NCBI GenBank assembly: GCA_003281085.1
Contig: QCCZ01000001.1
Span: 251,433 to 315,432 of the forward strand
DNA length: 64,000 nucleotides
Direction of reading: 5' to 3'
Origin: OCS155 cluster bacterium AG-349-E07
GTDB lineage: Bacteria > Actinomycetota > Acidimicrobiia > Actinomarinales > Actinomarinaceae
The translations under genes and the position numbers were made by a program. Positions 13,141 to 18,640 of this stretch are shown here, piece by piece. Positions within the stretch are counted from its first letter, which is position 1. Each line of letters starts with the position of its first letter. Below the pieces are notes generated by a model. That model worked only from the letters and a program-made list of their open reading frames with translations, had not been told where the DNA came from and searched no databases.

Positions 13141-14220
13141 TTGAATAAAAAAGCAATTGTTTTTCTTTTAGTATTTGCAATGGTAATCGTCGCTTGTGGA
13201 GACACAACCGAAGAAGCTGCTGTTGAAGCTACTGAAGAAGAACATGACCACGAAGGCGAGTCAACGCTTGAACAAGTTCAAGAAAGAGGCTTCCTTAAGT
13301 GCGGTGTTAGCACAGGTGCAACTGGATTCACTGAAGTAGGGGACGACGGTTCTTATTCAGGATTCGACGTTGACTACTGTTATGCAGTTGCTGCTGCTAT
13401 CTTCGGTGATTACAGTAAAGTTGAATTTAAACAACTTACTGCAGCTGAAAGATTTACAGCACTTAGCGCTGGAGAAGTTGATGTGTTGATAAGAAACACA
13501 ACTTGGACTCAAAGCCGAGACACAGAGCTTGGTAACGATTTTGGACCAACAACTTACTTTGACGGTCAGCAATTAATGGGAAGAGTTTCTGATGGACTTT
13601 CATCATCTTCAACTCTTGCTGATATTGACGGACTAAGAGTATGTACAAATGCTGGTACAACCACAGAAAAGAATATTACAGAAGGTGCTGGACTTGTAGG
13701 AGCTACAATTGAGCTCGTTACAGTTGAAGCATTCTCAGAGGCAATTGACAAGTTCATTGCTGGTGAATGTGATATTGTTACAACTGACGGTTCAGGATTA
13801 GTTGGTAGAAGAGCAGTCAATGACGCTCTTAATGACTGGGCAATTTTCCCACAATCACCAATTTCAAAAGAACCATTAGGTCCAACATACAGATCAAATG
13901 ATAGCCAATGGGCTGACATCATTAACTGGACTGTTTATGCAACAATCATTGCAGATGAGTACGGAGTTACAAGAGCTAACATCGATTCATTTGACTATGA
14001 TGCTGCACCAGAAATGGGTAGATTATTTGGTAAGAATGACGGAGAGCTTCAAACAAAGATGGGTCTTAGTGCCGATGCGTATTACAACGTTATAAAACAA
14101 ATTGGTAACTACGATGAAATCTTCTCAAGAAACCTAAATCCATTAGGTCTCTATAGAGAAGGTGGAGCTAACGCTCGCTGGACAGAAGGCGGATTAGTTT
14201 ACGCACCACCAGCAAGGTAA
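13141..14220 (+). CDS. aapJ: General L-amino acid ABC transporter substrate-binding lipoprotein (AapJ/BztA)
   Basis: Lipobox VIVAC, LKCGVS, GFDVDYC, RNTTWT, ISKEPLGP, GGLVYAPP; AGGAG SD. Confidence 0.93.
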   Translation: MNKKAIVFLLVFAMVIVACGDTTEEAAVEATEEEHDHEGESTLEQVQERGFLKCGVSTGATGFTEVGDDGSYSGFDVDYCYAVAAAIFGDYSKVEFKQLTAAERFTALSAGEVDVLIRNTTWTQSRDTELGNDFGPTTYFDGQQLMGRVSDGLSSSSTLADIDGLRVCTNAGTTTEKNITEGAGLVGATIELVTVEAFSEAIDKFIAGECDIVTTDGSGLVGRRAVNDALNDWAIFPQSPISKEPLGPTYRSNDSQWADIINWTVYATIIADEYGVTRANIDSFDYDAAPEMGRLFGKNDGELQTKMGLSADAYYNVIKQIGNYDEIFSRNLNPLGLYREGGANARWTEGGLVYAPPAR

Positions 14221-14303: not shown

Positions 14304-16103
14304 ATGAAAAATGCACTTAAGACGTTATCGTTTTTTAGGAATGTGGTATTTCTTAAGTGGGCTTCACAAATAGTATTTTTAGTAGGTCTTCTATATATAA
14401 TCTGGAGCTATATCCAAAATGCAGTCGTAAATCTTGAACAAACTAATATCGCTTTTTCATGGGGATGGCTAGGAGAAACGCCAGGAGTTTCAATTGCAGA
14501 AGGAATGTATACTCTCCCTAATTCAGGTCGACAGATGATCCAAGTCGGTATGCTCAATATGCTAAGGGTCACAGTTACAGGTATATTTGCAGCAACATTT
14601 TTGGGTACATTTCTTGGTATTGCTCGTTTATCAAAAAACTATATAGTAGAAAAAACTTCAACAGGTTTGCTAGAAGTTGTTCGTAATGTTCCTCTGTTAG
14701 TACAAATTTTCTTTTTCCAAGCTTTTGTATTGACTTTTCCTAGATTAGAAGTCTTTGATGTAGGAACTTATAATCTTCATGTAAGTGCAAAAGGTATTGC
14801 CTTTCCTTGGTTTAACAGACAACCTACAGCATATTTATTCTGGGTTTATTTGATAGCCATTTTAATTTTGGCTAACAAAATTTATAAGTGGAGAGTACAA
14901 ATTCTTGAAAGAGAGGGTAGAGAAACAAGGCCTTTTCTTTGGTCATTTGGTATCTTTTTTGGATTATTAGTCGCTGGCTGGTATGGAGGATATCGAGTCA
15001 TGGGAGTTATAGGATTCTTAGCCGGATATATTTCAACAGGAGTTGACCTTTTGCCTGCAATTTTTTATCAAATACTCTTCTCTTCAATTGCAGTATTTAT
15101 TGGTTATAGATCTACAAAGAAGTTTATAGATAGCAAAAAATCAGAAGAAGCCCAGGGAATTTACAGTGATGATGATTACTTTAAAATCATATTAAATGTC
15201 ATAGTTGTATTGTTAGTCGTTGTCTTAATGTTTTCCTCTGTAGGGCTGGGACTTTCTAACTTTCTAGTTGGTGATGAACTTGTTTTTAAAGCAGATTGGG
15301 GCGTTCCTCAATTTTTTGACGGTGTTAATAATAAACTATATTGGAACCCAGAGGCAAAAATTGTATTAGATGCACAGCTGGATGGTATGAAGAGAGCAGA
15401 TATTATAGATTGGATTGCTGTACCCGGCACAGAAGTAACAAAAGGTGATGTAATAGCAAGAGCTACAGCAAAAGACTTAAAGGGTGATTTGAATCAAGAG
15501 ATATCCATTTATGCAAAATATACAGGTGTAATCGAAGAGGTTTTTGTATCTAAGGGAGACACTGTAAAAATAAACGAAAAAACATACGATATTCGAGTAA
15601 CAGATAGTAAACCATTAGAACTGTCAAGACCAAGAATAGAGCAAATTGGTACTACTAAGTTTAAAAAATATGCTGATGGGTTTGGTAAGAGTCTCTCGGT
15701 AGGATATTTTGCTATTTGGCTTGGAGTTGTTTTGTATACAGCAATATTCATTTCTGAAGTTGTGAGAGCTGGAATAATGGCAGTTTCAAAAGGACAGTCT
15801 GAAGCAGGTCTTTCTCTTGGGCTAGGCCGAGGTGCACTACTAAGGTTAATAGTCTTACCACAGGCAATCAGGGTAATGCTTCCACCTATGGGTAATCAGT
15901 ATCTAAACCTTGCAAAGAACACATCTTTAGGTATAGCTGTTGCATATCCAGAAATTGTTGCTGTAGGGCAAACCCTTTACAACCAAGAAGGACAAACCTT
16001 GCCAGTATTTTTAATCTGGATGGCGTTTTACAGTACAGTAAGCTTGACTATTTCAACAATAATTAATTATTACAATAGAAAAATGAAAATAGTGGAGAGG
16101 TAA
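14304..16103 (+). CDS. aapQ: Amino acid ABC permease (AapQ/BztB-like), enlarged, with an inserted lipoyl/biotinyl-like domain
   Basis: GIARLS, RNVPLLVQ, EVVRAGI..VSKGQSEA, PPMGNQYLNLAKNTSL; insertion at about 15357-15599. Confidence 0.88.
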   Translation: MKNALKTLSFFRNVVFLKWASQIVFLVGLLYIIWSYIQNAVVNLEQTNIAFSWGWLGETPGVSIAEGMYTLPNSGRQMIQVGMLNMLRVTVTGIFAATFLGTFLGIARLSKNYIVEKTSTGLLEVVRNVPLLVQIFFFQAFVLTFPRLEVFDVGTYNLHVSAKGIAFPWFNRQPTAYLFWVYLIAILILANKIYKWRVQILEREGRETRPFLWSFGIFFGLLVAGWYGGYRVMGVIGFLAGYISTGVDLLPAIFYQILFSSIAVFIGYRSTKKFIDSKKSEEAQGIYSDDDYFKIILNVIVVLLVVVLMFSSVGLGLSNFLVGDELVFKADWGVPQFFDGVNNKLYWNPEAKIVLDAQLDGMKRADIIDWIAVPGTEVTKGDVIARATAKDLKGDLNQEISIYAKYTGVIEEVFVSKGDTVKINEKTYDIRVTDSKPLELSRPRIEQIGTTKFKKYADGFGKSLSVGYFAIWLGVVLYTAIFISEVVRAGIMAVSKGQSEAGLSLGLGRGALLRLIVLPQAIRVMLPPMGNQYLNLAKNTSLGIAVAYPEIVAVGQTLYNQEGQTLPVFLIWMAFYSTVSLTISTIINYYNRKMKIVER

Positions 16104-17905
16104 TGGTTGACTTAATTAAAAAGAACGCAAAGTCATTACAGGAGAGTTTATTTTCGTCTGTCGGATCTGCAGCTTTAACTATTGCTACAACGTATCTTGT
16201 AATTAACTTTTTCAGAGGAATGCTTGGTTTTGCATTAACGTCAGATAAAGATTGGCTGGCTGTATTAAACAATATGCAGCTATACATGGTTCAAGCATAT
16301 CCAGAGGAAGATTTTATTAGAGTCTGGTTATCAGTTGGCCTTACTTTTGTCCTTGCAGGATTATCAATTGGCATTTGGAGAAGTGATGATAGAGTAAAAA
16401 GTTCTCAGGTATTTAATTCCTTTTTTAAAGGCGGACTAGGTGTACTTTTCTTTACAATAATTGCTCCAACAAATTCAAGCTTTATGGGAAATGATGGATC
16501 GGTTATAACTGAAGAAGTCTTTTCTATGGAAACAAGGTTAGGAATATTAATTCCAGTTGCTATTTTCTGTGTAATATTTTTTAGTATCCGATTTATAAAT
16601 ATTAACTTTACTGTAAATAGCTCTGACATGGTTTTCTTTTATTTATTCATCCCTGTTGCACTTCTTTGGTTTATCAAGCTACCCACTATTCAACTGGATC
16701 AAAATAATGAAAGAATTATTCCTGACCCTGTAATGCCAATAGCTGATACCACAAAGATTCCTTGGACAGTCATCTTTGTATCATTCTTGGCTAGCTATTT
16801 TATTGGAATGTATCTTAAAAATATAAAAAGTATTAAGTCAATCATGTCTTTATCATGGTTTTTATTACCTCTTTTAATTTTTTCTTGGATTTTCAAAAAA
16901 CCACAAATTGACATGTCAGTCGTGCTTGGCAGTGACCTTCCTATATTCGGAGCTTTCTTACTTTGGGGTTTTTTAGTAATTACTTTTGTTAATAACTCTA
17001 TATTTAAAAAATATTACTCAACTTACTTAGGACTTACTTTCCTATTAACACTTGTTGGTGTCTTTTCTGGTTTACCGATGTTGGCTAAAACTTGCTTACT
17101 CTTGATAGCATTATTCTCGGTCGTGGTTCCAGCTGTATCAACTTCATCGCAGGGTAAAAGAAGTCTTTTAATCGTGTGGGCAGTTGCATTAGTTACCCTT
17201 ACCTTTTTACTAAGAGGGGGAGCATCAGATACTGGCATAGTCGTTCCGGGTTCAAGTATTTTTGGAGGTTTTTCTTTAACATGGTTACTGGCCATATTTG
17301 GAACATATGTTTCTTTTCCACTCGGAGTCTTATTGGCACTAGGGAGAAACTCAAAACTACCAATAATTAGAATTGTCTGTACTGGAATTATTGAATTAAC
17401 TAGGTCTGTGCCATATATCACATGGTTATTTTTTGCAAGCGTCACCTTAGCAGTATTTCTACCCGCAGGAGTTGAGTTCAACTTAATAGTTAGAGTGTTG
17501 ATGGTGACAGCTTTTTTCAGTGGTGCTTACTTTGCAGAAAATATTAGAGGTGGTCTCCAATCTATTCCAAAAGGACAATATGAAGCGGCTGATGCTATAG
17601 GAATGAGCCCATTTCAAAAGATTTCTCTAATTATTATGCCACAGGCTCTAAGAGCAGTTATACCTACTCTTGTTAGCAGTGCTATTACAGCTTTTAAAGA
17701 CTCAAGTCTTGTGACAATTATTGGATTATTTGATTTCCTCACTATTGGAAAAACTGTTATCGGAAATCAATCAATACCTGTAAACTTTGTTGGTCATGAC
17801 AGAGAGAATTTAATTTTTGTAGCAATTGTATATTGGATATTTACTTTTACGCTTTCTAGAAGAAGCATGAAAGTTGAAAAGAAGTTAGGATTAGGAGAGA
17901 GGTAA
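16103..17905 (+). CDS. aapM: Amino acid ABC permease (AapM/BztC-like) with extra TM segments
   Basis: FPLGVLLALGR, AENIRGGLQSIPKGQYEAA, FKDSSLV. Confidence 0.88.
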   Translation: MVDLIKKNAKSLQESLFSSVGSAALTIATTYLVINFFRGMLGFALTSDKDWLAVLNNMQLYMVQAYPEEDFIRVWLSVGLTFVLAGLSIGIWRSDDRVKSSQVFNSFFKGGLGVLFFTIIAPTNSSFMGNDGSVITEEVFSMETRLGILIPVAIFCVIFFSIRFININFTVNSSDMVFFYLFIPVALLWFIKLPTIQLDQNNERIIPDPVMPIADTTKIPWTVIFVSFLASYFIGMYLKNIKSIKSIMSLSWFLLPLLIFSWIFKKPQIDMSVVLGSDLPIFGAFLLWGFLVITFVNNSIFKKYYSTYLGLTFLLTLVGVFSGLPMLAKTCLLLIALFSVVVPAVSTSSQGKRSLLIVWAVALVTLTFLLRGGASDTGIVVPGSSIFGGFSLTWLLAIFGTYVSFPLGVLLALGRNSKLPIIRIVCTGIIELTRSVPYITWLFFASVTLAVFLPAGVEFNLIVRVLMVTAFFSGAYFAENIRGGLQSIPKGQYEAADAIGMSPFQKISLIIMPQALRAVIPTLVSSAITAFKDSSLVTIIGLFDFLTIGKTVIGNQSIPVNFVGHDRENLIFVAIVYWIFTFTLSRRSMKVEKKLGLGER

Positions 17906-17911
17906 TATCGT

Positions 17912-18640
17912 ATGAGCATAATTCAAACAAAAGATGTAAAAAAATGGTTTGGAGATTTTCAAGCATTAAAAGGTATAAGCATGGACGTTGCAGAAGGAGA
18001 GGTTCTTGTAATCTGTGGTCCATCAGGTTCAGGTAAATCTACATTCATACGATGCATTAACAGGCTTGAACAACATCAAGAAGGTCAAATAATTGTTGAT
18101 GGTATAGAGCTTACAAATGATTTGAAGAACATAGAAGCTATCAGATCTGAAGTTGGAATGGTTTTTCAGAGCTTTAATCTTTTCCCACATTTAACAGTTA
18201 TGCAGAATATTACCCTTGCCCAGATATGGGTTAGAAAAAAGAATAGGGCAGAAGCTGAAGAAAAAGCAATGGAGCTTCTCGAAAGAGTTGGAATTCCAGA
18301 ACAGGCTCAAAAATTTCCGGGACAGCTCTCTGGCGGTCAGCAACAAAGAGTAGCAATTGCTAGAGCACTAGCAATGGAACCAAAGATTATGCTTTTTGAC
18401 GAACCTACTTCTGCATTGGATCCTGAAATGATTAAAGAAGTATTAGATGTTATGAAAGAATTAGCACAATCTGGTATGACAATGATTGTGGTTACTCATG
18501 AAATGGGTTTTGCAAAAGAAGTCGCAGATAGAGTCATGTTATTTGACGAGGGTCAACTTGTAGAGGAAAATACTCCTGAAGAATTCTTTAATAATCCTGA
18601 GAGTGATAGAACTAAGCTATTTTTGAGTCAAATTCTCTAG
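17912..18640 (+). CDS. aapP: Amino acid ABC transporter ATP-binding protein
   Basis: [35 protein letters not shown]. Confidence 0.95.

Follow-up and report, generated by a model that had tools for sequence, protein, structure and literature searches.

A lipoyl-fold domain within the AapQ-type amino-acid permease of Candidatus Actinomarina

The lipoyl domains of adaptor proteins such as MexA, MacA, HlyD and BesA are split by a long alpha-hairpin at the lysine site. In a published account (PMC8277102), adaptor lipoyl domains are described as unmodified, stabilising assemblies and forming a gating ring in MacA. A soluble domain of another kind is known from type I ATP-binding cassette (ABC) importers. 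This is the P2 loop, which is found only in enteric MalF, is periplasmic, wraps MalE and keeps it on the transporter throughout the cycle, as stated in PMC4245157. The present work deals with an 84-amino-acid (aa) domain, homologous to the lipoyl domains of E2 proteins, that is inserted into a polar amino-acid ABC permease of the AapQ type. The permease gene (14304..16103, + strand, 599 aa) belongs to a Candidatus Actinomarina genome, OCS155 cluster bacterium AG-349-E07 (assembly GCA_003281085.1, contig QCCZ01000001.1). It lies in a stretch of 64,000 nucleotides, here called the window. The assembly comprises 954,793 bases, the guanine plus cytosine (G+C) content of the window is about 33%, and the source names of homologues include "Candidatus Actinomarina sp." and "Candidatus Actinomarinales bacterium".

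An earlier reading of the window, made from the sequence only, knew of no described fusion of this kind. No published description of a lipoyl domain in an amino-acid permease was found in the sources searched (supplements excluded); the word lipoyl does not occur in the Actinomarina genome papers examined. The combination of lipoyl, permease, periplasmic loop and ABC led, judged by titles and opening lines of abstracts, only to systems for efflux or for the export of antimicrobial peptides. In automated annotation, relatives of the permease already carry PF00364 together with PF00528.

The inserted domain and its relatives

The insert is a single complete domain that is truly homologous to the lipoyl domains of E2 proteins and adopts their fold. 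The translation of 15357-15599 (+) gives the peptide quoted in the sequence-only reading plus two more residues, in frame inside 14304..16103. That reading had recognised in it a lipoyl-pattern barrel-sandwich domain within a loop of the AapQ permease, which the comparisons with PF00364, 1LAB, the genome's own lipoyl protein and solved folds confirm. The insert, its flanks and the first core elements behind it are placed as follows.

15270..15353, + strand: N-terminal flank of the predicted outward loop, aa 323-350, common to insert-free orthologues (permease alignment; ratio of nonsynonymous to synonymous substitution rates, dN/dS, of the two loop flanks 0.004-0.10)
15354..15605, + strand: inserted lipoyl-fold domain, aa 351-434, 84 aa, no linkers (clean alignment gap; split matches; PF00364; hhalign; VIA)
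15459..15497, + strand: lengthened beta-hairpin, aa 386-398, at the lipoyl-lysine turn (6-residue gap in the lipoyl partners)
15492..15494, + strand: codon of Asn397, which occupies the canonical lipoyl-lysine column (placed by alignment with 1LAB and with the lipoyl protein of this genome)
15606..15698, + strand: C-terminal flank of the predicted outward loop, aa 435-465, common to insert-free orthologues (permease alignment; strands at aa 438-465 in the low-confidence full-length model)
15699..15773, + strand: core transmembrane helix 3 (TM3), aa 466-490 (hydropathy peak at aa 469-487; model helix 466-496; ArtQ aligned from aa 475)
15789..15824, + strand: first part of the EAA coupling motif, aa 496-507 (ArtQ has its EAA motif at the aligned position)

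In an alignment of 15 permeases, eight show a clean gap at this position and the other seven contain the domain. The hhalign match covers aa 352-435 and therefore spans the insert (aa 351-434) as one complete domain without linkers.

PF00364 (Biotin_lipoyl) matches the insert alone (81-aa piece or domain) with 25.7-26.3 bits at a curated cut-off of 22.1, the 81-aa piece reaching 26.3 bits (E 6.6e-6). In a scan of the whole protein, the same model gives 19.3 bits (E 0.001), under that cut-off. The profile check against PF00364 that the sequence-only reading had suggested was also run on orthologous inserts from 18 genomes, each scanned singly, and PF00364 was found in 18 of 18 at E <= 0.01 (best E 3.6e-11). 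Biotin_lipoyl_2 matched 11 and HlyD_D23 matched six of the same inserts, all more weakly than PF00364. Among solved structures, the best match of the loop profile is the lipoyl domain 1LAB (E 3.4e-5, full length), followed by E2 and biotinyl domains. The genome's own 90-aa lipoyl protein is aligned with the loop profile by hhalign at a probability of 97.4% (E 1.4e-11, 78 columns).

A profile of the domain only, compared with 1.84 billion representative proteins, returned 678 matches at E <= 0.001. Pfam analysis of the best 40 of the 678 revealed PF00364 in 38, E3_binding in 21, the E2 catalytic domain in 16 and BPD_transp_1 in none; the two proteins without a family are short fragments of this insert itself. 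A related insert in other permeases was sought with a membrane-core profile, which had 0 matches among the 150 listed of the 678 representatives. Three proteins of 163, 96 and 64 aa (P0122, P0129 and P0139) start or end within the insert and continue as unrelated sequence. They look like frame-shifted or truncated calls of this permease on short metagenome contigs.

The fold was examined in an AlphaFold2 model of the loop, in which the predicted local distance difference test score (pLDDT) reaches only 66-76 over the domain. All top Foldseek matches of this model are lipoyl or biotinyl domains. By VIA, the human pyruvate dehydrogenase complex lipoyl domain (3crk_D) matches with Z 10.0 and a root-mean-square deviation of 2.0 A over 78 of 78 residues, and the adaptor lipoyl domains of BesA, HlyD and MexA match with Z 8.4, 8.2 and 8.0. 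At that pLDDT, VIA and Foldseek identify the modelled domain as the flattened eight-strand beta-barrel of about 80 residues. An ESM Atlas look-up with aa 345-437 gave no usable match.

Three frames of the genome, 425, 104 and 569 aa long, contain ordinary PF00364 domains. The 104-aa frame contains the stand-alone 90-aa lipoyl protein with a canonical T-D-K turn (L034 1459-1731, - strand, contig C1 at about 113.3 kb). This protein is encoded directly downstream of a 327-aa E1-beta-like gene, on a different contig from the E2 of the 425-aa frame, and is the best match to the permease insert inside the genome.

The sequence-only reading had named a chimeric assembly as something that would refute it. 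That the insert is an assembly chimera or a mis-joined contig is refuted by the genome distribution and by contigs that bridge the junctions; no point in favour of this idea was found, and its probability is negligible. Thirty full or near-full genome matches and two partial ones show the 599-aa form, which is also present in many independent metagenome clusters, one of which has 1209 member sequences. The stretch was found in 19 public runs of 12 studies. In the four runs examined, a DNA contig (X2, 14900-15794) and RNA-library contigs from different studies (X14, 15153-15794; X16, 15235-15763) bridge both junctions with 2, 2 and 19 differing letters, the three contigs coming from three studies. 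No contig of these four runs skips the insert. Two X5 contigs (15189-15359 and 15341-15603) reach fewer than 31 letters past the junctions and were not counted as bridging. The G+C content of the insert (0.353) equals that of the remainder of the gene (0.356). Presence in RNA libraries is no proof of transcription. In one X16 contig, an additional A follows 15576 within the insert; it would put the sequence out of frame and could be a strain variant or an error of assembly.

Lysine site and position at the membrane

When the insert is aligned with 1LAB or with the 90-aa lipoyl protein of the genome, six of its residues just ahead of the D-K turn have no counterpart in the partner, and in both alignments the column of the lipoyl-lysine falls on Asn397. 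The sequence-only reading had assumed that a longer loop, TAKDLKGD, replaces the ETDKA turn. A longer loop is indeed present; its extra residues, TAKDLK, sit just upstream of the canonical turn. Since both alignments place Asn397 in the lysine column, TAKDLKGD is an extension ahead of the turn, and the canonical lysine is gone in the window. Across 27 inserts, the column contains Asn in 14 (all 14 genomes of the window's clade), Lys in 12 and Thr in one. The hairpin extension is of 6-7 residues, and this region differs most between clades. The invariant residues of the insert are mostly structural (Ile, Trp, Pro-Gly, Gly), together with a Met-Lys pair at 362-363 in the first loop. This pair was considered as a biotinylation motif and rejected, because its Met aligns in hhalign with the Met of the genome's own lipoyl protein.

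The position of the domain was deduced from the order of the helices. The only solved relative of the permease found by sequence is ArtQ (4YMS; E 9.3e-19), a five-helix permease. ArtQ is aligned at aa 81-156 and 475-595; therefore, aa 157-474 of the AapQ-type permease are extra and lie between core helices 2 and 3. According to hydropathy and the model, an N-terminal helix (15-41) and core TM1 (86-109) and TM2 (125-146) are followed by four further helices (about 175-193, 210-226, 249-267 and 295-313), a 143-aa soluble loop (323-465) and core TM3 (466-490). The short loops at aa 194-231 and 268-294 contain six Lys+Arg residues each, as expected for the cytoplasmic side and for a four-helix insert ending outside.

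TM3 is the sole helix between the soluble loop and the EAA motif, which begins at aa 496. In PMC4245157, this motif is described as the cytoplasmic loop that couples the permease to the ATPase. Because a single helix separates the loop from this cytoplasmic motif, we infer from topology rules that the loop and its lipoyl-fold domain face outward. The sequence-only reading had placed the domain in a soluble loop, and the topology prediction it called for agrees, putting this loop outside, directly before TM3. Lipoylation or biotinylation by cytoplasmic ligases would therefore not be expected.

The insert is homologous to E2 lipoyl domains (PF00364; 1LAB and chain D of 3CRK) and to the 90-aa protein of the genome, and it has their size, their fold and the motifs G-x-I-x-x-W, P-G-D and G-x-V. 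Unlike them, it is embedded in a predicted outward loop of a permease, its lysine is not conserved, and its hairpin is longer. No E3-binding or catalytic domain accompanies it in the permease, in which it differs from E2 proteins. The insert is a member of the lipoyl family by fold and descent, and it lacks the lysine and the partners of a carrier and, by its predicted position, also the location.

These observations bear on the idea that the domain is a working modified lipoyl or biotinyl carrier with a redox or acyl-carrier role at the transporter. Its homology to carrier domains speaks for this idea, as do the lysine in the canonical column of 12 of the 27 inserts, with a D-K-Q context in the ~75% clade, and an LplA/LipB-type catalytic domain encoded beside the genome's E2 gene. 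A carrier would show a conserved modifiable lysine at the hairpin tip (DKA or MKM) and a cytoplasmic location within reach of LipB/LplA or BirA. Instead, Asn stands at the lysine column throughout the window's clade, with Thr in one further genome, the hairpin is extended, and the topology rules put the loop opposite the EAA motif, out of reach of cytoplasmic ligases. The permease protein also has no E1, E3-binding or catalytic partner domain. We therefore give a working cofactor carrier very little probability: the window's clade has lost the lysine, the hairpin has changed, and the predicted outer position would keep the domain from the LplA/LipB-type enzyme. The modified form that the sequence-only reading had allowed as an alternative thus finds no support in the side of the loop or in the Asn of the 14 genomes.

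The LplA/LipB-type domain is in a 548-aa frame right after the E2 gene (L046, contig C3 5868-6440, + strand). For a lipoyl transferase this frame is long, and it could encode a fusion, for instance to lipoyl synthase.

Distribution, origin and selection

The distribution of the insert was surveyed in 65 genomes of the order: the genome of the window, 63 others of the same genus and one of a second genus. The insert is present in 32 of the 65, as 30 continuous (full or near-full) matches and two partial ones that include it. Another 30, among them the second genus, have the permease without the insert, which is seen as split matches (1-348 and 435-599) in one open frame of 516-540 aa; insert-free orthologues of Actinomarinales are 512-540 aa long. 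The remaining three genomes are incomplete and gave paralogue-level matches only. The view of the sequence-only reading that AapQ permeases normally lack such a domain agrees with the orthologue distribution, in which 30 of the 62 orthologue-bearing genomes of the order are without it.

A quick maximum-likelihood tree was built with the insert columns removed from 27 insert-bearing and 23 insert-free rows (L021, L024 and L030 were left out). All 27 insert rows fall on one side of a branch with support of 98; an insert-free lineage is their sister, and the other insert-free rows are outside. As the insert rows form one clade, the tree indicates that the insert was gained once, in the ancestor of one clade within Actinomarina. 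No loss was seen among the 32 carriers.

Among the 150 listed of the 678 matches, the best single-domain scores against the insert profile are 42-45 bits, and they belong to several actinobacterial-looking E2 N-terminal domains and to a 90-aa lipoyl protein of the Actinomarina type. The 90-aa protein of the genome itself reaches 41.8 bits, less than 4 bits short of the best listed, whereas its E2 reaches 22.5 bits. These scores do not single out one donor of the insert.

Selection was estimated as pairwise Nei-Gojobori dN/dS at dS of 0.4-1.1, with codons containing N skipped and L021 and L030 (partial) and L024 left out. Three clades gave the following values.

Clade A, 14 genomes, 91 pairs: dN/dS 0.07 for the domain, 0.03 for the membrane part
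Clade B, 6 genomes, 14-15 of 15 pairs usable: dN/dS 0.23 for the domain, 0.06 for the membrane part
Clade C, 7 genomes, 20-21 of 21 pairs usable: dN/dS 0.04 for the domain, 0.04 for the membrane part

By these ratios the insert is under purifying selection, looser than that on the membrane core.

Lipoyl domains have their N and C ends side by side, so that one can be inserted into a loop without strain. This makes conceivable a tolerated passenger, that is, a duplicated lipoyl domain in a permissive loop whose fold is kept since misfolding would harm the permease, and which has no function of its own. Such an origin would suit the fact that about half of the orthologues (30 of 62) work without the insert, that no fixed changes in the partner subunits accompany it, and that its sequence drifts faster than the membrane part. 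The dN/dS of 0.04-0.23 in all three clades, at dS of 0.4-0.7, and the absence of losses among the carriers argue against it. Furthermore, Actinomarina genomes are about 1 Mb and highly streamlined, as given in PMC7771536, and a useless 84-aa insert would be expected to erode in them. A mere passenger is regarded as improbable, yet it stays a live alternative.

The importer and a possible role of the domain

The host protein is, judged by its sequence, an ordinary AapQ-type permease apart from the insert. It belongs to a four-gene ABC importer operon in which the binding lipoprotein is followed by the AapQ-type permease, a second permease and the ATPase.

13141..14220, + strand: AapJ-like substrate-binding lipoprotein, 359 aa, lipobox VAC-G (SBP_bac_3 E 1.9e-14, Pfam; TIGR01096 E 3.9e-41)
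14304..16103, + strand: AapQ-type polar amino-acid ABC permease, 599 aa, BPD_transp_1 core split by a long insert (BPD_transp_1, TIGR01726, ArtQ 4YMS)
16103..17905, + strand: AapM-type second permease, 600 aa, core at about aa 386-585 after a long membrane N-terminal part (BPD_transp_1 E 5.2e-18)
17912..18640, + strand: ABC ATPase subunit, 242 aa (named from its position and Walker-type sequence)

The permease has the BPD_transp_1 (PF00528) core (E 3.9e-9, 37 bits at a cut-off of 26.4, best stretch aa 469-594), the EAA motif and the TIGR01726 three-helix region (aa 78-138, 44.2 bits at a cut-off of 42.2), and it is encoded together with a binding protein of family 3, another permease and an ATPase. 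With the AapQ, BztB and YhdX permeases, for which ArtQ 4YMS is the solved core, it has in common the operon order, the TIGR01726 region, the EAA motif and the C-terminal core, and it is unlike them in the 84-aa lipoyl-fold insert. Members of this family may take up a broad range of L-amino acids. All 10 operons compared have the same gene order and the same neighbours (purA upstream, an M20-type peptidase gene downstream).

An acidic, low-complexity, Glu-rich linker with a short His-containing stretch (window 13141-13260, +) joins the lipobox of AapJ to its folded part, and the mature, folded AapJ is 320 aa in 36 of 36 operons listed. In the AapM-like permease, Pfam places the core only at aa 405-582, and the N-terminal ~385 aa contain many helices and have no family match. 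This permease is the least conserved subunit, with 48-66% identity between insert-bearing and insert-free genomes, compared with 78-91% for AapJ and 88-95% for the ATPase, the last range holding across the 10 operons.

The best overall explanation is that an E2-type lipoyl domain was inserted into the last outward loop of AapQ and kept as an accessory domain of the outer face; our confidence in it and our doubt are about equal. On this explanation, the ancestor of one Actinomarina clade would have inserted a complete E2-type lipoyl domain of 84 aa just before core TM3. The lipoyl-lysine has been lost in the window's clade, and the hairpin that once bore it is lengthened. The domain would be outside the membrane, beyond the cytoplasmic lipoyl and biotin ligases. 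It might serve there as a built-in outer-face module that holds or orients the membrane-anchored AapJ at the transporter, as MalF P2 does for MalE, with the lengthened hairpin as its contact tip. By analogy with MalF, such an AapJ-holding module is put forward tentatively as the most likely mechanism, one more doubtful than the explanation as a whole. Somewhat less probable still is the specific form in which the cofactor-free, exapted domain acts as an outside receptor for AapJ, its hairpin reaching the binding protein or its cleft, so that AapJ is parked and capture is raised.

Like the insert, MalF P2 is a soluble domain restricted to one lineage, and it too sits in an outward-facing loop of the permease of a type I ABC importer, the side of the insert being assigned by topology rules. 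This likeness concerns a possible mode of action and not family membership, and binding of AapJ by the insert would be a further step. The P2 domain is immunoglobulin-like, of about 20 kDa, and lies between MalF TM3 and TM4, ahead of the core. The insert is a 9-kDa domain between the extra helices and core TM3, and its fold by VIA is of the lipoyl type and not the immunoglobulin-like fold of P2.

Several observations count against the favoured explanation. The models of the loop and of the full-length protein (mean pLDDT 51 and 60) are both of low confidence. The fold match depends on a model of middling quality, and the sidedness of the domain comes from topology rules and not from coordinates. 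Between clades, the identity of the domain is 35-44% as compared with 74-82% for the membrane part, i.e., the domain evolves faster. The canonical lysine is retained in some of the inserts, as counted above, which could be ancestry or residual function. Docking of AapJ, which the sequence-only reading had suggested, is what we infer. In four insert-bearing and six insert-free operons, AapJ has 0 columns that are fixed within the groups but different between them, and AapM has one such column. Between the window and the nearest insert-free genome, the identity of AapJ is 91%, and for this reason no co-adaptation of the partner is visible; if the domain binds AapJ, the surface used needed no change. 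A complex prediction with mature AapJ and the AapQ loop gave no answer (score 0.00, mark 0.32) and is evidence neither way.

The lack of group-specific changes in AapJ also fits an outer-face brace or gate that makes no contact with AapJ. In this case, the domain would stabilise the large ten-helix permease or its contact with AapM, or restrict the entrance to the translocation path. A precedent is provided by efflux adaptors, where unmodified lipoyl domains outside the cytoplasm stabilise assemblies and form a gating ring in MacA (PMC8277102), and the adaptor domains of BesA, HlyD and MexA match the insert structurally, as shown above. The insert is proposed to share with the MexA, MacA, HlyD and BesA domains the unmodified lipoyl fold outside the cytoplasm. 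It is unlike them in that only a 6-7 residue extension is found at the lysine site and that its closest sequence relatives are E2 lipoyl domains, not adaptors. The adaptor models remain under their cut-offs (HlyD_D23 16.5 at 30 bits; Biotin_lipoyl_2 21.4 at 29.8 bits), and neither AlphaFold2 model, both being of low confidence, predicts a helix inside the domain, where adaptors have the alpha-hairpin. The single group-specific fixed column in AapM likewise speaks against a brace. The probability of a role confined to bracing or gating at the outer face comes close to that of AapJ docking; taken by itself, such a role is rather unlikely.

Actinomarina is among the most abundant surface-ocean photoheterotrophs, according to a preprint (bioRxiv 10.64898/2026.04.03.716425). 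In PMC7771536 it is reported to be auxotrophic for Arg, His and Trp and to rely on importers of amino acids; this general amino-acid importer is therefore central to its lifestyle. In a genome of about 1 Mb, a domain that was gained and then retained by selection would mean a real change in the amino-acid uptake of half the genus. The insert would also represent a clean and datable exaptation, in which a cytoplasmic cofactor carrier was moved outside the cell and its cofactor site decayed while the fold was retained. Type I ABC importers would then have, besides the MalF P2 loop, a second type of outer domain that is specific to a lineage. The natural insert-bearing and insert-free orthologues, with a 91% identical binding protein, offer a ready-made experimental comparison. 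If the domain is indeed a receptor for AapJ, this would be the first example of an importer that has taken a cofactor-carrier fold into service as an accessory domain, and the domain would allow better capture of scarce amino acids in a very abundant ocean clade that is unable to make arginine, histidine and tryptophan.

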